NCBI GenBank assembly: GCA_000004695.1
Contig: CM000152.2
Span: 6,016,001-6,080,000 of the forward strand
Direction: 5' to 3'
DNA length: 64,000 bases
DNA from: Dictyostelium discoideum
Taxonomy: Eukaryota
Below, in pieces: positions 51,799-64,000 of this stretch (the stretch's first letter is position 1; each line of letters begins with the position of its first letter). Under the pieces are notes generated by a model. It made no database searches and had not been told where the DNA came from. It was given only the letters and a program-made list of their open reading frames with translations. Both the position numbers and the translations under genes were made by a program.

Positions 51799-55194
<3,396 letters not shown>

Positions 55195-55545
55195 TATAAA
55201 TAAAAAAAAAATAAAATAATTAATTCAATTCATTTAAAATAATGAATAAAATTACATTAATTTAAAACAAATTTCCAATAAAAATTTAATCTTGTTTTGT
55301 TGTTTAATTGGATAAAATGGATAAAAAAAAAAACCATATAAAAAAAACAGCCTTTATTTGAGCCCTGGTATTTCTGATTTAAATCCCATTATATAAAATG
55401 AGAACATGTAAGACTCATATTATTTTATTAATTTATTTAATTATATTTATTTTATTATATTTATTTAATTAATTTAATTTTATTTTATAACTTTAATTTA
55501 ATATATTTTATTTGAGATAATGAAATTCAAATCCAAAAAAATCTT

Positions 55546-55660
55546 GGATAATGCAATTGTTAGTTACTTCTCCTTGAGATTCTTGTTCTCATTTTATTAT
55601 ATAGTTTTAAATTACACGGCCTTTATAAGTGTAACAGAAGTGGTATAGTTTAAAATGATT
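55546..55660 (-). mobile_element. TRE5-family C-module-like relic (a diverged homologue of 56686-56790), part of a degraded element upstream of tRNA-Ile
   Basis: GGATAATGCAATTGTTAGTTACTTCTCCTTGAGATTCTTGTTCTCATTTTATT aligns with GGATAACGCAATTATTATTTGCTTCTCCTTGAGATGCTAGATCTCATTTTATTTT of the TRE5-A 3' end. Confidence 0.3.
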
Positions 55661-56151
55661 TGTATTATATTATTTAAAGAATTTCTTATGTTTAATTTAT
55701 TTTATTAATTAATTTAAATGAATTTTATATTTAGAATTTATATTTATTTATTTAATATTATTTATTTTATATTATTTGTATCTATTATATTAAGTGAGTT
55801 CTAACTACTGAAAATAATAATATTTAATTTTCATTTTATACTATCTAAAATGTGTTTGACAGATAATATTAAAAGATTTTAATATAATATGATATTATTG
55901 AATGTATATAGAAAACTAATTAGGAATTAAATGACACAATTTTAGAAATGAATAATGAAAAAAGAAGTTTTATTATTGTAACGAAGAAACACTGCTTTCG
56001 TTAAATAAGGGGTAAGTGGGTTTTTTTATATTTTTTTTAATTCAATATAATCTTTTTTTTTTTTTAATAACATCAATCAATTTTATTTTATTTTATTTTT
56101 TTTAATTCAATATAATCTTTATTATCAATTTTTGAATAAAAAAATATAAAA

Positions 56152-56224
56152 GCTCGATTAGCTCAGTCGGCAGAGCGTGGTGCTAATAACGCCACGGTCG
56201 CAGGTTCGATCCCTGCATCGAGCA
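56152..56224 (+). tRNA. tRNA-Ile (anticodon AAU)
   Basis: GCTCGAT/ATCGAGC acceptor stem, GCTC/GAGC D stem, TGGTG/CGCCA anticodon stem, CTAATAA loop (AAT), GCAGG-TTCGATC-CCTGC T arm, discriminator A; 73 nt. Confidence 0.8.
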
Positions 56225-56244
56225 TAATTTTATTAGAGAATATA

Positions 56245-56262
56245 AATGGTCAAGGGTTCGAA
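56245..56262 (+). promoter_or_regulatory. External B box (ex-B, GGTCAAGGGTTCGAACCCTTAG) about 24 bp downstream of tRNA-Ile
   Basis: Matches the pol III B-box consensus GGTTCGAANCC. Dictyostelium tRNA genes typically carry an extra B box shortly downstream. Confidence 0.45.
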
Positions 56263-56681
56263 CCCTTAGTTTATAATTCCACTATTTTAGTCATAATATA
56301 TAAAGCACAATGAATATTATATGAATATTCTTTTTATTACAATTATGAATATTATGATTATAAAAAACTTATTTAACAATGATATTCATTACAATTGTAG
56401 ATAAAAAACAATCAAAAAACCGACATGGATCAAGCATTTTTGGAGGTGCACTAAAACATTAAAAACATCACAGACTTTGGTTCGAGTTTTGGTCTATGAC
56501 AACAATTAATGTTGACCAAAATGGCTCACCTCCAAAAATTCAAGCAATAGGATAGAAATTCTAACCAAAAAATTAAAAAAAAACCAAATCAAATCAAATT
56601 AAAGAGTTTCTTGTGGAATCTAAGGTTTACATTTTTTTAATATTTTGAAAAAAAGTTTTTTTTTTTTTTTTTTTTTTTTTT

Positions 56682-57102
56682 GAATTGGATAACGCAATTA
56701 TTATTTGCTTCTCCTTGAGATGCTAGATCTCATTTTATTTTATTTTTTTTTTTTTTTTACAGGGTCTCTAAAAGAGGGGTTAGTTTACTTTTTTTTTTTT
56801 TTTTTTTTTGTTTCGAATTTTGAATTGTATTATTACTTTTGATTAAAACATCTTTTTTGTCCAAACTTTTTTCTAAATCTTTTTTTATTTTATCGTCTGG
56901 TTCGTGATTGATGTTTATGACGTATTTGAATTGTTTTTTTTTTAATTGAGTTTTATCCACAATTTCGCTTATTTTTTGTAGGCATTTGTGTTGCTTAATA
57001 TTTGTGGTGTTGTTTGTGATTTTCATTTTATTTTCTTTCTATTTTTTATATTTTTCTTTAAAAAGTTAAAAATCTGGAAATTTTCTGATTATCTTGGGTT
57101 CA

Positions 57103-57105
<3 letters not shown>
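56682..57105 (-). repeat. Internal duplicate of the TRE5-A B-module plus ORF1 codons 1-70 (57105-56817) fused to the C-module (56816-56682)
   Basis: 57027-57105 matches 61933-62040, and 56817-57026 matches 61723-61932 (identical MKITNNTTNIKQHKCLQKISEIVDKTQLKKKQFKYVININHEPDDKIKKDLEKSLDKKDVLIKSNNT). The sequence then diverges into the A-rich C-module. Confidence 0.7.
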
Positions 57106-57163
<58 letters not shown>

Positions 57164-60100
57164 TTATTTATAGAAAGTACTGAGTGAATTATTGTATTTT
57201 TTGAGATGTTTAGGAAGTTCTATTGCGTGAAGAGGTGAGTTCCATTGTCTGCTAAATTGTAATAGCTTTAGCGAGATTAGTGAGTCTAATTTATTTTGTT
57301 CTTCTGGCCGTTGCTTTGATTTGATTCTTAATGTTTTGTTTATAACCGCTTGTGTCCTGTCCCATGCAGCTCTTTGTGTTTTAATTAGTTCACGTATGAC
57401 TTGTTGTCTGTGAATTATTATTTCTTTTTCATCGTGAATGAGTTTATTTCTTTTGTGCCAGATTTTATCGAATATAATAGCTATTAAATTGGCTACTAGT
57501 GCAATTTGTAGATGGTTTAAAATCTTCACATTCCAGGTGTGAGTGGTGTGTCCACACTTAGTTAGGGTGTAGTTGAAGATTTCTTGTGTGTTTTTGATGT
57601 GGGCTTTGCAGTTGAAGAATATATGTTCTGAGGTCTCATCTTCCCCACACTGTTGGCATGGCATGTTGTATATTTTTGGTAGTGCTTTCAGTGTGTATCT
57701 CCATAATAGATCTCTACCTTTCATGTTTATTATTTTTTTGATTTCTTTAAATGGAAGGTGTTTGCTATTAATTTTGGTCATTATTTCTTTTTGGCCAGGA
57801 GTTGGTATGAATTTGTTGTGTTCAGGAGATTGAGTTGTCATCATATCTTCGTATATTTTTTTTAATTTTGGGAGGTGTTCGTAGTGTGTTTGTTTATTTT
57901 GTGGAGTTTTTAATTGGGTCCATGCTTGCTTGCATTGCCAGTGTAGTTGTAGTTGATTTTGTTTTGTTGTTGTTTTGTTGTTGTTGTTGTTTTTGAGTTC
58001 CTCTTCCCACAGTTTTATATATGAACTAGGAGTGTTACTTACTCTTTGGTGGAGGTATCTTTCGAATAACCATGCTTTCTGTGCTAGTTCTCTTGTCTTC
58101 AGGTTCCATAAGTTTAGGCCACCATTGATATAGTTGTTTTGTCTTCTTTGTAGTGAAAGAGAGTTTTTAGATTTTGTGTTGAAAACGAATTTTACGATGT
58201 TATTTTCAATACTATTGTGTTGTGGTGTGGTGTTGATGTAAGTGTGGAACGTTAACTGAGATAGTGCATATGTTTTTGCCATTATGAGTCTGCCCATATA
58301 GGTTGATGAAGTTGAGTTCCATGTTACTAGTTTAGCTCTGATGTTGTCTGAGATTGTATTGATTTTGGATTTGATACCCTTATTGTTGAAGTCAAAGCCG
58401 AGGTACCTTTCGTTTGATTTTATGACGGTGTATAGCGTTCTGGTGTTCCATTTGAAAGTGATACACGAGCATTTGGTTTGGTTTATTTTTGCGCTGGTTG
58501 CTTGGCAAAACTTCTTGATCCATTCATTCATGAGGAAATGGTCCATAAAGTTGTATGCTATTGTTGCTGTATCATCGGCGAACTGTAGTATTTTAATGGT
58601 TTCTTTGGTTACACCATTGATGCAGCGGTCATTTATTATAGTAGTTGCCATGCATTCACCCACTAATGCGAAGATAGTGGGAGAGATAGGATCACCTTGT
58701 TTGGTTCCTCTTTTTGATGTAAAGCTTTTAGATAATGAGTTATTGATGTACACTGATGTTTCTGATTCATTGAGTAAGTTCATTATTGTGAGGACCATTT
58801 TGAGTGGTAGTTTTAGATGTGCAAGAGTACGTAGAATGGCGTTATGTGAGAATAAATCGAATGCTTTTTCAAAATCATAAAATGTTATGATTGGTTCCAT
58901 ATCCTCTTTTGTGTTAATCTCTCGTTTTATTATTTCTATTGTTGAGTTTAAGGTGATGATGTTATCGTGCAGTAGTCTTCTTGGTACGAATCCAGTTTGG
59001 AATGGTGAGATTATTTTGTTTAAGAACTTCAGGATCCTATTGTTGATTATTTTCGAATAGATTTTGTAATCGACATTTAGAAGTGTTATTGGTCTATAAT
59101 TATCCAGGTTGTTTGGGTCTCCTTTGTTTTTATATATAGTAATCAATATCCCTTGTTTGAAGTCCTTTGGGATTGTTGTGTTCCAGAAGTGATTGTATAG
59201 TTTTGATATTATTGGTAGAATTTCATTAATGTGGTTTTTGTAAAATGTTGGAAGGAGTCCATCTTTACCAGGTGCTTTTCCTTCTTGTATTTTTTCAATG
59301 CCTAGTCTGATTTCATATCCTTCTATTGGTTGATTAATTTCGTCCAATATCTTTTGATCAATCCTTTTATTGAATGTTTTTAGGAGTTCGTGGTGAGTGT
59401 CTTCGTTGCATTCTCTCTTCTGGTACAGGTTCTCGTAATATCTTCTTGCTACTTCGAGGATATCCTCGTGTTTTGTTACCAAACAATTGTTGCTTGGATC
59501 TAGAATTTGAGGGATTTCATTTGTCTTTCTTTGGACTTTTAACCTTCTGGTTAAGTATTTTGATGGTGTTTCTTTGTTGTTGATGTGGGTGTTGGTTTGG
59601 TTTGCTTGTTTTATTCTTACTTGTTCCTTTAGAATATTGTTGATCTCTTCTTTAAGGAAGATTGCTCTTGAATCTTTGGCTGTTTCGAGTTTTTCTGCGA
59701 GTTCTTTTAGTTTGTTTTTGGTTTTATTGCTTTCTCTAATTTCTATATTAATTGACAGTTTCTTTATTTCATCTTTTAGTTTCAACCATTGTTCGCAAAT
59801 GTTTAATTTGTACCATTTGCTGGTGTTCTCTTCGAATTTTTTATTGTAGTATTTAATTGTTTTATTAATTTTGAGGCTGGTTGAATTCATTTTGAGAGTT
59901 TCTAGGTTTTGTCTCCATAGTCTTTCTCCTTTCTTTTGTTGCTCGTATTCTGGTATTTTTAATTCAATGATTACCATGTTGTGATCAGATTTTAATTTGA
60001 TTTCCTTAGTAGTAACTATTGGGTTTAGATGGAGTATCTTCTTTGAGACAAAGACCCTATCGATGGTTGATTTGTTTCTTGGAAATGTGATTCCATTCTT

Positions 60101-60385
60101 AATTTCTGTAAATTCGAATTCGTCGAAGATTGTTTTAATATATTTGTTAAGGTTATTATCCACTGAACAGTCTACATTGAAGTCTCCAGTTATAATATCG
60201 CTGTGTAGTATTTCTTCTGTGAGATTTTCCTTATACCATTCATGTCTTTCGTTTGACTTTGCTGGGGCATAAATGGTTGTGCATTTGATCTGTGTTTTTG
60301 CAATCATCCATTCGGAAGATATAATTCTTTCGTTTATTGTTTTTGTTGTTGTTTTTATTTGGGTGTTGATGATGATTTGTGACAC
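57164..60385 (-). CDS. TRE5-A ORF2 (apurinic-type endonuclease, reverse transcriptase and Cys-rich domain; 1073 codons; true start codon uncertain)
   Basis: Uninterrupted frame. Endonuclease and RT motifs as above. A CCHC-like tail, ...CQQCGEDETSEHIFFNCKAH. Confidence 0.8.
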   Translation of the reverse strand: MSQIIINTQIKTTTKTINERIISSEWMIAKTQIKCTTIYAPAKSNERHEWYKENLTEEILHSDIITGDFNVDCSVDNNLNKYIKTIFDEFEFTEIKNGITFPRNKSTIDRVFVSKKILHLNPIVTTKEIKLKSDHNMVIIELKIPEYEQQKKGERLWRQNLETLKMNSTSLKINKTIKYYNKKFEENTSKWYKLNICEQWLKLKDEIKKLSINIEIRESNKTKNKLKELAEKLETAKDSRAIFLKEEINNILKEQVRIKQANQTNTHINNKETPSKYLTRRLKVQRKTNEIPQILDPSNNCLVTKHEDILEVARRYYENLYQKRECNEDTHHELLKTFNKRIDQKILDEINQPIEGYEIRLGIEKIQEGKAPGKDGLLPTFYKNHINEILPIISKLYNHFWNTTIPKDFKQGILITIYKNKGDPNNLDNYRPITLLNVDYKIYSKIINNRILKFLNKIISPFQTGFVPRRLLHDNIITLNSTIEIIKREINTKEDMEPIITFYDFEKAFDLFSHNAILRTLAHLKLPLKMVLTIMNLLNESETSVYINNSLSKSFTSKRGTKQGDPISPTIFALVGECMATTIINDRCINGVTKETIKILQFADDTATIAYNFMDHFLMNEWIKKFCQATSAKINQTKCSCITFKWNTRTLYTVIKSNERYLGFDFNNKGIKSKINTISDNIRAKLVTWNSTSSTYMGRLIMAKTYALSQLTFHTYINTTPQHNSIENNIVKFVFNTKSKNSLSLQRRQNNYINGGLNLWNLKTRELAQKAWLFERYLHQRVSNTPSSYIKLWEEELKNNNNNKTTTKQNQLQLHWQCKQAWTQLKTPQNKQTHYEHLPKLKKIYEDMMTTQSPEHNKFIPTPGQKEIMTKINSKHLPFKEIKKIINMKGRDLLWRYTLKALPKIYNMPCQQCGEDETSEHIFFNCKAHIKNTQEIFNYTLTKCGHTTHTWNVKILNHLQIALVANLIAIIFDKIWHKRNKLIHDEKEIIIHRQQVIRELIKTQRAAWDRTQAVINKTLRIKSKQRPEEQNKLDSLISLKLLQFSRQWNSPLHAIELPKHLKKYNNSLSTFYK

Positions 60386-60597
60386 CCCTTGTCCTGTTTT
60401 ATCAATTGGTGCGTGGTGTGTTATTTTGTTTTTATATTGTTGATTTATTGAGTAAATTTTATTTGTTTTTATATTTGTTTCAGTTAGAAGTGCTGCGTCC
60501 AGCTTGTTGTTGTCTAATACGGTGTTTATTATGCTGGCAGATTGGATGGTGTTGGATCCTTGGACGTTCCAAACACCTATTCTTATTGTGTTTTTCT

Positions 60598-61932
60598 TTA
60601 TAGTTTTATTTGGGGTAGATTTTTATCTACCTTTTGAAGTTTCTGGTTTATTTTGTCTTCTAACTGATCTTTACTTTGTTCGTTGTGTTGTTGGTCTTGT
60701 GTGTTTGTGGGGTTTTTTGATTTACTGATTTGTTTTAGAATTTCCTTGTTGAAGTTGTCTATATCTTCATCCATTTTTGTTTTTATGCTTTTTTGTCCAT
60801 ATTCACCCAATTTTGGTTTGACTGGTGTTTTGTTGGTCCTGTTTGTTTTGTCTTGTTGTTTGTTTTTTGGTGTGTTTAACAATTTACTTGGTGAATCGAT
60901 AATTTTCGATGGTGTACCATAGGTTGGGCTGAAACTCATGATATGTTTTATTGGAGAGGAGAAGAACCATTGATTTGAAGGGATTGAAAGTGGGAATTCT
61001 ATTTTTCTTATTGCATCAGTGTTTGGGCTGGTGAAGTCGAAGATATCATTTACCTCTCTAAGTTTTTCTTCCGTTGTTAGTCTCTTTGTTTCGCCGTGTT
61101 GTTTTATTGGTGTATTGTATGGAGATGGTGGTTCAATAGGTTTTTCTGATTTTGTTTTAATTTCTTGATTTTTTATCGATTGGGTATTGATCTCATTCTC
61201 TATTCTTGTTAGTTCATCTACGTTTTCTAGTGATGCATCTATTACCTTTTGAGCTGTATCATCTAGGGCCATAAATGTTTTATCATTAAATGAGGAGGTG
61301 ATTGGTGGGATAATGATTGTTCTTTTTCCTTGTTTTGGTATTTGTTCTGATGTAGATTTTGGTTGTTGTTCATCTGATTGGTTTTTATTTTTGTTTTCTT
61401 CTTGATTTTCTGGTAATGAGGTTTGATCTCTCCATCCTTTGTTGGAGTGACCAATTAATGTTAGATTGTCTAGTTCAATGATAGTATCATATTCTTCTAC
61501 GACTCTTTTCACTGTTTTGATAATTAGAGTTTCGCCTTTAATTTCAGATTTAATTAGTTTACATCCTTCATTTTCTATTACCCATTCTATTTCTGTGAGT
61601 GATTTATACCAATCGAAATCCGTATACATATTTTTTGGTCTTAGAGTGGTTATAAATTGTCCTTTTAATTCTGCATCGAACATATTTACAAAATAGATTA
61701 CTGTACTAATACTGTCTGTGAGAATTTTGAATGTATTATTACTTTTGATTAAAACATCTTTTTTGTCCAAACTTTTTTCTAAATCTTTTTTTATTTTATC
61801 GTCTGGTTCGTGATTGATGTTTATGACGTATTTGAATTGTTTTTTTTTTAATTGAGTTTTATCCACAATTTCGCTTATTTTTTGTAGGCATTTGTGTTGC
61901 TTAATATTTGTGGTGTTGTTTGTGATTTTCAT
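60598..61932 (-). CDS. TRE5-A ORF1 (444 aa, basic nucleic-acid-binding protein)
   Basis: ATG at 61932. The first 70 codons are duplicated at 57026-56817. A 212-bp spacer lies before ORF2. Confidence 0.7.
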   Translation of the reverse strand: MKITNNTTNIKQHKCLQKISEIVDKTQLKKKQFKYVININHEPDDKIKKDLEKSLDKKDVLIKSNNTFKILTDSISTVIYFVNMFDAELKGQFITTLRPKNMYTDFDWYKSLTEIEWVIENEGCKLIKSEIKGETLIIKTVKRVVEEYDTIIELDNLTLIGHSNKGWRDQTSLPENQEENKNKNQSDEQQPKSTSEQIPKQGKRTIIIPPITSSFNDKTFMALDDTAQKVIDASLENVDELTRIENEINTQSIKNQEIKTKSEKPIEPPSPYNTPIKQHGETKRLTTEEKLREVNDIFDFTSPNTDAIRKIEFPLSIPSNQWFFSSPIKHIMSFSPTYGTPSKIIDSPSKLLNTPKNKQQDKTNRTNKTPVKPKLGEYGQKSIKTKMDEDIDNFNKEILKQISKSKNPTNTQDQQHNEQSKDQLEDKINQKLQKVDKNLPQIKL

Positions 61933-62007
61933 TTTATTTTCTTTCTATTTTTTATATTTTTCTTTAAAAAGTTAAAAATCTGGAAATTTTCTGATTAACT
62001 TGGTTCC

Positions 62008-62058
<51 letters not shown>

Positions 62059-62062
<4 letters not shown>

Positions 62063-62735
62063 TCTTTTTTATATGAAAAATGAAATAATCAAAAAAAGAG
62101 ATTGTTGTTGTTGTTTGTTTTTTTTCGATCTGATTATTTTTTGCTTTTTTTTGAAAATTTTGCTACGCAAAATTCTCAAAACGAAACAAATAATAAATTC
62201 CAATAAAGTAAAAGATGGGCTTTTTAGATTAGTTTATTTTATTAATTTATTTGTTTTTTAAAGTCTTTTTTTATATGAAAAATTGAAATAATCAAAAAAA
62301 AGAGATTGTTGTTGTTGTTTGTTTTTTTCGATCTGATTATTTTTGCTTTTTTTTGAAAATTTTGCTACGCAAAATTCTCAAAACGAAACAAATAATAAAT
62401 TACAATAAAGTAAAAAGATGGCTTTTTAAGATAGTTTATTTATTTATTTATTTGTTTTTTAAGTCTTTTTTATATGAAAAATGAAATAATCAAAAAAAGA
62501 GATTGTTGTTGTTGTTTGTTTTTTTTCGATCTGATTATTTTTTGCTTTTTTTTGAAAATTTTGCTACGCAAAATTCTCAAAACGAAACAAATAATAAATT
62601 ACAATAAAGTAAAAAGATGGCTTTTTAAGATAGTTTATTTATTTATTTATTTGTTTTTTAAGTCTTTTTTATATGAAAAATGAAATAATCAAAAAAAGAG
62701 ATTGTTGTTGTTGTTTGTTTTTTTTCGATCTGTTT
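62059..62735 (-). repeat. Tandem array of TRE5-A A-modules (~200-bp unit, about 3.4 copies; units begin at ~62060, 62262, 62461 and 62660, the last truncated)
   Basis: The near-identical unit AAGTCTTTTTTATATGAAAAATGAAATAATCAAAAAAAGAGATTGTTGTTGTTGTTTGTTTTTTTTCGATCTGATTATTTTTTGC...TTTGCTACGCAAAATTCTCAAAACGAAACAAATAATAAATT... repeats with a period of 199-202 bp. Confidence 0.75.
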
Positions 62736-62779
62736 TGAAAAAAAGGGTTGCAGCTAATTTTTTTTAAGAATATCGATTA

Positions 62780-62853
62780 GTTCGGATGGTGTAGTCGGTT
62801 ATCACGAATCCTTAACACGGATTAGGTCGTGGGTTCGATTCCCGCTCTGAATA
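62780..62853 (+). tRNA. tRNA-Val (anticodon AAC)
   Basis: GTTCGGA/TCTGAAT acceptor stem (two G-U pairs), GTGT...TCAC D arm, AATCC-TTAACAC-GGATT anticodon arm, variable AGGTC, GTGGG-TTCGATT-CCCGC T arm, discriminator A; 74 nt. Confidence 0.75.
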
Positions 62854-62949
62854 CAAACTAACATTTTTAAGTAACAAATTAAAAAACAAAGAAATAAACG
62901 AGAATTTATACATATAATAAATATCACAGGTAAAAAAAAAAAAATACAT

Positions 62950-64000
62950 ATAATAAATAAATCACTGTTATATCTTCACCGCCACATTCATTCCTCTTAA
63001 TTTTACCCTTTTTTTGCTCAATAAAGCAAGGGCTATCGTCCTATATACTAAACAATCACCAATGCAAATCAAAAGACTATATTGGCAAGAAATATTCAGA
63101 TCTACTTCTTACTTCGCACCAACAATCAATACAACTATTATGGAAATACACATACGACCAACTTTTTGTCAAAATTCAAAAATTAAAAGATCCAAAAGGC
63201 CGAGATACAATGCAAAGATTCCATGCTAGATGTCTTCCGATTAATCATCTACACAACAAAGTTTGCCCCATTTGCAACAATGAAATGAATAATGATCCCT
63301 ATGGTCATTTGTTTTTCAATTGTCAGCACACAATCAACTTCATTAACCACGACAAATTAAAATATTTTATATATAAAAATTGCAATGGAAACAAAAACTG
63401 GTCACTAACAAAAAACCATACAACAAAATTTTACACACTCATCTATAAACCACAAACAAACAACAAAGCATTTAAACCAGATCCAACTATCAATATTAAT
63501 TTTCATTTTGCAGAAAACGCACAATATAAAAAATACAGGTTCAACTGGAATTATATAAACACAAATCTTGATCTAGTCAGAACACATGCATATTGGAACA
63601 TAATCTCATTAGTTATTCACCAAATATGGATATGGTTATGCAAATCATTATTTGACATCAATATAACTCAATCAATTGATAATTGGAACAACCAAATAAA
63701 CAAAACAACACTAGATTATGATATATTAAAATCAAAATGGCACAAGCTAATAAGATTGGAATATTCAAGAACTTTATCAAACTTTAACCAATACTCAATT
63801 AAAAACAACCTCACAAAAACTCAAAAAGAAACCCAATGGTCCGAAACCATCAAAAAATTTAAAAAAGAATGGAGCATAAACACTAATGAACCAATTCCAA
63901 CAATTACACCACCAATTAATTATTAATTACCTAATCTAAAATAACATACCATTTTAAATTCACAAAAACTAAAAAACCTAAAATAAATAAATAAAAATAA
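62950..64000 (+). mobile_element. 5'-truncated TRE3-like non-LTR retrotransposon 3' portion (the ORF2 C-terminal Cys-rich domain is in frame 63210..63926; there is a frameshifted upstream piece at 63014..63229). It begins ~100 bp downstream of tRNA-Val and continues past the window end.
   Basis: RCLPINHLHNKVCPICNNEMNNDPYGHLFFNCQHT parallels the TRE5-A ORF2 tail PCQQCGEDETSEHIFFNCKAH. GC-richer, A-rich coding strand. Its position matches the known TRE3 preference (~100 bp 3' of tRNA genes). Confidence 0.5.

Follow-up and report, generated by a model that had tools for sequence, protein, structure and literature searches.

We conclude, with a probability of approximately 0.96, that positions 56656-62732 on the minus strand of a 64-kb stretch of Dictyostelium discoideum DNA (contig CM000152.2 of assembly GCA_000004695.1, bp 6,016,001 to bp 6,080,000; hereafter the window) are one complete copy of TRE5-A.1, a retrotransposon without long terminal repeats (LTRs) and of the long interspersed nuclear element (LINE) type, placed there by a single insertion event. 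The window as a whole has a G+C content of 22%, and its proteins match those of D. discoideum. TRE5-A.1 is itself an already known element, and the locus is the canonical place for TRE5-A. A first-pass annotation, made from the letters of the sequence alone, had proposed a TRE5-A in canonical position upstream of a tRNA-Val gene, a claim borne out by module order, module sizes, spacing and orientation. It had also offered two accounts of a long internal run of A residues behind the second open reading frame (ORF), taking it either as part of the canonical architecture or as the seam between two stacked insertions.

Insertion site and limits of the element

The element is 6077 bp in length (56656-62732, minus strand). 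It is bordered on both sides by a target-site duplication and lies between two tRNA genes, as follows.

62780-62854, plus strand: target tRNA-Val(AAC) gene (ARAGORN; Rfam tRNA, 57.9 bits)
62733-62745, minus strand: tRNA-proximal copy of the target-site duplication, CTTTTTTTCAAAA on the minus strand
56643-56655, minus strand: distal copy of the target-site duplication, CTTTTTTTCAAAA
56152-56224: tRNA-Ile(AAT) gene (ARAGORN and Rfam)

The 13-mer CTTTTTTTCAAAA has two occurrences in the 64-kb window, counting both strands, and these directly abut both ends of the element. A duplication of this kind at the outer flanks was what the first-pass annotation had suggested looking for. The limits of 56655-62735 given there located the element correctly, but its ends were off by 1-3 nt and reached into the duplication, and the label of a near full-length element is replaced by that of a full-length copy.

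Element nucleotide 62732 and tRNA-Val nucleotide 62780 are separated by 47 bp, rather than the 44 bp reported earlier. The arrangement is head-to-head, with the A-modules of the minus-strand element adjoining the 5' end of the plus-strand tRNA-Val gene. Integration of TRE5-A is strictly orientation-specific, and its primary site lies 47+/-3 bp upstream of tRNA genes (PMC5391098). Spacings of 44-49 bp were measured at six other tRNA-adjacent junctions, one of which is the same locus in a second assembly (L003). Both the spacing and the orientation of the window element are thus as published for TRE5-A, which supports its identity as TRE5-A.1. An Rfam scan of 54500-64000 revealed nothing beyond the two tRNAs.

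Modular structure

Read along the minus strand, the element consists of approximately 3.4 A-modules, a run of 48 A residues (A48), a 290-bp B-module, ORF1, ORF2, the dinucleotide AT followed by A55, a second B-module, a 133-bp C-module and an A26 tail. Its parts were delimited as follows, all on the minus strand.

62060-62732, minus strand: A-module array, comprising three full units (62534-62732, 62336-62533 and 62133-62335) and a 73-bp partial unit ending in ...GACTT (Tandem Repeats Finder, TRF, period 199, 94% matches; blast of one unit)
62012-62059, minus strand: internal A48 run, from the partial A-module to the 5' B-module
61722-62011, minus strand: 5' B-module, 290 bp, comprising a 79-nt leader and ORF1 codons 1-70
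60598-61932, minus strand: ORF1, 444 codons plus stop
57164-60622, minus strand: ORF2, 1152 open codons plus stop, with an endonuclease of the apurinic/apyrimidinic (APE) type, a reverse transcriptase (RT) and a Cys/His motif
57107-57163, minus strand: linker AT plus A55 run, from the ORF2 stop to the 3' B-module
56815-57106, minus strand: 3' B-module, 292 bp, repeating the leader and ORF1 codons 1-70
56682-56814, minus strand: C-module, 133 bp, containing runs of A21 and A16 and, at its 3' end, stem-loops
56656-56681, minus strand: 3' oligo(A) tail, A26

The published scheme of TRE5-A.1 is AB-ORF1/ORF2-BC, with modules of 200 bp (A), 290 bp (B) and 134 bp (C), in which the B-module defines the start of ORF1 and is duplicated into the 3' untranslated region (UTR) (PMC3159450). 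The module sizes found here, 199, 290 and 133 bp, match these values and further support the identification. The full A-units measure 199-203 bp, and the third of them is only 93.7% identical to the others and contains small indels. The three full units and the 73-bp partial agree with the approximately 3.4 tandem A-modules proposed before; the slightly higher TRF figure of 3.5 arises from counting that extends into the A run. In the literature, the A-module array is the plus-strand promoter region.

Behind ORF2, the TAA stop codon (57164-57166) and then AT precede a pure A55 run at 57107-57161. The first-pass annotation had seen this run, at 57107-57160, but had made it 54 nt long, and it had missed the second internal run, the A48 ahead of the 5' B-module (62012-62059). 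It had correctly described the part that follows, namely a duplicate of the B-module with ORF1 codons 1-70, fused to a C-module and ending in a second A tail, although that tail spans 56656-56681 rather than 56655-56681. The 3' B-module is 98.6% identical to the 5' B-module and has a 1-nt insertion near its end. It also gives rise to a spurious 89-codon ORF at 56757-57026.

The C-module RNA has a predicted fold of -13.5 kcal/mol (z=-2.9), with stem-loops predicted in its last ~50 nt. The stem-loop that the C-module forms at its 3' end has been reported to be essential for retrotransposition, and the nucleotides T15, C26, A35 and C38 of the window copy, counted from the 3' end, match those named or mutated in that work (PMC3159450).

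The internal A runs in other copies

Copies for comparison were reached via the cluster of ORF2 homologues, one member of which is encoded at the loci designated L002 to L010. These are nine fetched loci from an independent D. discoideum assembly, and they represent eight distinct genomic places, as L009 and L010 overlap. At the nucleotide level, the modules of the window element are 99-100% identical to those of 9 D. discoideum loci. The junction ORF2-stop/ATA/A(35-45)/CCTG.GAACC was present in every copy (12 junctions at 9 loci), and the junction GACTT/A(33-42)/CCTG.GAACC in every copy whose 5' end had been captured (9 junctions). One of the loci, L003, is the window locus in the other assembly, with the same tRNA-Val, tRNA-Ile, duplication, approximately 3.4 A-units and A26 tail. 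Its two runs inside the element measure A41 and A44. At L004 and L007, and at two more diverged loci, L001 and L014, the complete unit together with its internal A runs is enclosed by a duplication of 12-17 bp. The oligo(A) tails of the other copies are 10-27 nt long.

Six A/T homopolymers of at least 40 nt occur in the window, with its 22% G+C. Since long homopolymers are so common there, the length of A55 is unremarkable by itself, and it is the fixed position of the run in every copy that matters. Judged by the shared junctions, A55 and A48 are inherited parts of the element, canonical in TRE5-A, that drift only in length. The suggestion of a canonical architecture with an A-rich linker is therefore borne out, both by the common ATA+A(n)+CCTG.GAACC junction and by the one flanking duplication.

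The number of A-modules is far more variable, ranging at other loci from 1.5 to at least 16.5 between otherwise near-identical copies; the array of L005 runs off the locus. The array extents examined for variable unit number were L004:1192-3279, L005:1-3282 and L006:1199-3281.

Age and origin of the A runs

A runs were also found in more distant elements. In L001, a TRE5-A lineage ~10% diverged, there is ~A40 before the 5' B-module and ~A37 after ORF2, and in L014, from D. cf. discoideum and belonging to a TRE5-A lineage ~14% diverged, these runs are A30 and A39. The TRE5-C-like element L011, with an ORF2 57% identical, has the order A-array/A32/B-like leader...ORF2-TAA/A58/C-module/A9 and its own 13-bp duplication. 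In the TRE5-B-like L012 there is an A31 before the leader and no run after ORF2. L013, from D. citrinum, has A33 before the leader and, after ORF2, A31, a 33-nt repeat of the ORF2 end, A30 and a C-like module. On this comparison, A runs at module junctions are a family trait. Because the TRE5-C-like element has ORF2-A58-C without a B-module, and because the C-module of TRE5-A begins with GAAAC followed by A21, the 3' B-module looks as if it had been placed inside a pre-existing, ancestral ORF2-(A)n-C run.

A different origin can be proposed at the level of the family, one that is compatible with a single insertion in the window and competes only over what the A runs originally were. They could be the fossil poly(A) tails of an ancient composite of A-array-(A)n, B-ORF1-ORF2-(A)n and B-C-(A)n, the units of which would have become linked a single time, in one master copy, either because the RT jumped end to end between templates or because stacked elements were read through, and would have been passed on as a whole ever since. 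All three of these sub-units end in oligo(A), and both B-modules start right after a run. The run before the B-like leader is moreover common to the TRE5-A, TRE5-B-like, TRE5-C-like and D. citrinum elements, and head-to-tail dimers of the form ORF1-ORF2-(A)n-B-ORF1-ORF2 exist at L008 and L009/L010. However, the TRE5-C-like ORF2-A58-C arrangement has no B-module, so that the 3' B-module looks like an inserted piece and not like a separate tailed unit, and homologous recombination between A runs or between B copies, followed by deletion, would give the same structure without template jumping. On balance we regard an origin from fossil tails as rather unlikely.

Single versus stacked insertion

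If two insertions were stacked in the window, a TRE5-A with its own poly(A) tail after ORF2 would stand beside an older B-C fragment that had undergone an internal deletion and had a tail of its own. The position of A55 directly after the stop codon does resemble a LINE poly(A) tail, and other tRNA genes do carry stacked TRE5-A insertions. At L002 (183-8640) a TRE5-A.2-like element lies beside a full-length one, and at L006 (1187-9395) a full-length element lies beside a solo A-B-C in a BC.ABC arrangement. Each of these loci has three copies of one duplication, GATTAATCACCAAT at L002 and GTTGTATAAGAA at L006, and in both cases one copy is at the seam. The second element at L002 and at L006 has re-used exactly the same tRNA-measured target, and it is for this reason that a third copy of the duplication is expected at the seam of a real stack.

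The window differs from these loci in precisely this respect: no target-site duplication was found around 57107-57161, the 13-mer being limited in the 64-kb window to the outer ends of the element. The same internal junction, furthermore, recurs at all 12 junctions in the 9 loci and in the diverged lineages. As the window has no third copy of the duplication and its junctions are shared elsewhere, the A run is part of the element and the copy represents one insertion. Stacking, for which the first-pass annotation had named a duplication around 57107-57160 as the sign, is thus refuted for this copy, and we assign it a very small probability. Extra G residues were also observed at the 5' junctions of the stacked loci L002 and L006.

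Differences between assemblies

Some points weigh against our reading of the window. Relative to L003 there are 14 substitutions inside the element, scattered over 57092-62004, and none in 5.7 kb of flanks. Small indels clustered in the third A-unit (62133-62345) and the homopolymer length differences are likewise all inside the repeat. This distribution suggests that, in one of the two assemblies, the repeat suffers from low sequence quality or from a mixing of copies. The A runs are 7-11 nt longer here than in L003, although the locus is the same, and their exact lengths are uncertain. The term canonical is drawn from genomic copies and from the summaries in later papers. Finally, promoter use, the contact between ORF1p and TFIIIB, and target-primed reverse transcription, all of which enter the model given below, were taken from the literature.

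An assembly artefact, in which reads from several TRE5-A copies had been combined into a chimera and the A run or the duplicated B-module marked a mis-join, would account for the confinement of every substitution, indel and length difference to the repeat, but it is scarcely credible given that architecture, module order, duplication and A26 tail are identical in the independent assembly and that the architecture is likewise found at all other loci. It is the fine sequence detail that is in doubt, and not the structure.

ORF1, ORF2 and coding capacity

No Pfam domain was found in ORF1. It has Ile at residue 10, in agreement with the published I10* mutant (PMC3159450). Relative to ORF1, which it overlaps by 25 nt, ORF2 is in the -1 frame, and it has no start codon near its beginning (window 60598-60625), which reads AAA TCT ACC CCA AAT AAA ACT ATA AAG... 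The ORFs of TRE5-A.1 are known to overlap (PMC5633606).

ORF2 gave a Pfam match to RVT_1 (E=2.4e-30), and its best match among solved structures was human LINE-1 ORF2p (E=4e-45). A profile of six TRE5-type N-termini matched L1 endonuclease structures (E=2.4e-18), and the endonuclease catalytic columns N, E, Y, D/N, D and S-D-H were invariant across this profile. A single-sequence PDB search with the ORF2 N-terminus returned noise only, the N-terminus being too diverged. The Pfam matches of ORF2 to Exo_endo_phos and zf-RVT were below threshold, that of the Cys/His motif to zf-RVT being weak (E=0.016). The earlier description of ORF1 followed by an ORF2 with APE endonuclease, RT and Cys-rich tail is upheld. 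ORF2 is 99.4-99.7% identical to 1047-amino-acid proteins of D. discoideum AX4 such as DDB_G0269056.

An exact-protein look-up of ORF1 found no record, because the copy carries private substitutions. Five other copies, L003 among them, agree in a consensus from which the window copy departs by 7 private amino-acid changes, of which K184N and S215F are in ORF1 and N385H, E435G, S590L, I591F and V655G are in ORF2. The S590L/I591F pair directly follows the D-x-E-K-A-F-D motif, beside RT motif A. Both ORFs are open, but in view of the 7 private changes the copy may or may not be competent for retrotransposition.

Homogenization and possible exchange of the B-modules

The two B-modules of one element were compared in three TRE5-A lineages, using the following pairs.

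Window 61722-62011 and 56815-57106
L001:3307-3595 and L001:8304-8596
L014:2194-2483 and L014:7118-7408

In each of the three lineages the 5' and 3' B-modules of the same element differ by 0-5 substitutions, whereas between lineages the B-module differs by 28-49 substitutions per 290 bp, and 49 variable columns change in concert. This pattern implies that the 5' and 3' copies are homogenized and have been evolving in concert across the lineages.

Dimers with the order A-B-ORF1-ORF2-(A)n-B-ORF1-ORF2-(A)n-B(-C) are located at L008:3297-13144 and at L009:3296-13144 plus L010:1-8621, the latter two being one array. The middle B-module of the dimers continues into a full ORF1. Solo A-B-C derivatives also exist among the fetched loci, and dimers and solo A-B-C are the reciprocal products expected from exchange between B-modules or between A runs. 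It is possible that the dimers are products of such B/B or A-run exchange, or else that they are assembly artefacts. Taken together, the sequences suggest ongoing exchange between B copies or A runs, by recombination or template switching. The 3' B-module could itself have originated from a dimer, by deletion from ORF1 codon 70 to the run before the C-module. We offer tentatively, at less than even odds, the broader proposal that the A runs may serve as joints for recombination or template switching, and that the two B-modules may resemble continually homogenized terminal repeats in the style of LTRs. A literature search on template switching, concerted evolution or tandem TRE5-A yielded nothing relevant, with the structure papers of 1992-2001 outside its scope.

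Relationship to known elements

The closest known system is the autonomous TRE5-A.1 (formerly DRE), which the window copy resembles in module order, sizes, tail, duplication, spacing, ORF2 identity and the named positions of the C-module and ORF1. There are no structural differences. Private to the window copy are the 7 substitutions and the degraded third A-unit, and its A48 and A55 are longer than the 33-45 nt of other copies.

The non-autonomous TRE5-A.2 and solo ABC elements, examples of which are found at L002 (193-2774) and L006 (8642-9383), share the A-, B- and C-modules, the A run before the B-module and the targeting. They lack most of ORF2 or both ORFs, whereas both are complete in the window copy. 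TRE5-C and TRE5-B share the A-array, the half unit, an A run of ~31 nt, a B-like leader, ORF1, ORF2 and the position upstream of tRNA genes, and a further match in the TRE5-C-like element is a long A run behind ORF2, together with a C-module. They differ in having only 52-63% amino-acid identity in ORF2 and no 3' B-module; the TRE5-B-like element is also without a C-module and without a run after ORF2 (also PMC3159450).

Human LINE-1 shares with TRE5-A the order of APE endonuclease and RT in ORF2p, a poly(A) end and a variable target-site duplication. In contrast to LINE-1, TRE5-A has an ORF1 without detectable homology, targets tRNA genes, needs the stem-loop of the C-module at its 3' end (PMC3159450), and carries internal A runs and a duplicated 5' leader in the 3' UTR.

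Neighbourhood of the insertion

The locus L014:1320-8993 has the same NAGidase gene, tRNA-Val(AAC) and tRNA-Ile as the window, and a TRE5-A 47 bp upstream of tRNA-Val. Its duplication, GTCCTTCGTTACAAT, and its target sequence differ from those of the window, as does the order of flanking segments. The possibility that the two elements represent the same ancient insertion was rejected on account of the differing duplication and target sequence, which make the L014 element an independent insertion at an equivalent tRNA gene.

On the minus strand at 55544-55602, ~550 bp upstream of tRNA-Ile, the window contains a 59-nt fragment that matches the 3' half of the C-module at 86% identity. It was the sole lead from an unfiltered blast of the element against the window, the output of which was dominated by homopolymer matches. 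The fragment is closer to the D. citrinum-type GAGAACAAG.ATCTC version and lacks an A tail; an older TRE5 insertion is its probable source. A similar C-fragment is present at L001:554-612, 54 bp upstream of tRNA-Ser.

A palindromic sequence, GGGTTCGAACCC, located 30 bp downstream of tRNA-Ile at 56254-56265, resembles a tRNA B box, in the manner of the external B boxes reported from 3' flanking sequences of tRNA genes in Dictyostelium. Toward tRNA-Ile, the first protein-coding neighbour is a 1131-codon ORF on the plus strand (51799-55194) with very long poly-Q and poly-N tracts, and a gene of the same length is called at this place in L003.

Proposed mechanism of insertion

Based on the literature on TRE5-A, the A-module promoter would drive synthesis of a plus-strand RNA. 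ORF1p binds TFIIIB subunits in vitro according to the same literature, and a part in choosing the tRNA-gene target, at the TFIIIC/TFIIIB complex, has been proposed for it. The APE endonuclease of ORF2p would then nick the target, and the RT would prime on the nick and copy the RNA from its C-module/oligo(A) end, the published process of target-primed reverse transcription, of which a target-site duplication of variable length and a 3' oligo(A) are hallmarks, here of 13 bp and A26. What the sequence itself shows is one insertion, 47 bp upstream of tRNA-Val(AAC) and with the element's 5' end facing the tRNA gene, which produced the duplication seen in the window. The A55 and A48 runs belong to the RNA template and are copied in each retrotransposition cycle.

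Implications

The assemblies disagree in sequence detail within the repeat, and no given copy should be called active on the strength of a single assembly. For other windows of the same genome, an internal A run should not be flagged as a nested insertion. Insertions that are truly stacked can be recognized reliably by a target-site duplication present in a third copy. When TRE5-A is annotated, two internal A runs of ~33-56 nt are to be expected, along with A-modules in variable number (1.5-16.5). For transposon specialists, the B-modules' concerted evolution offers a modest lead.

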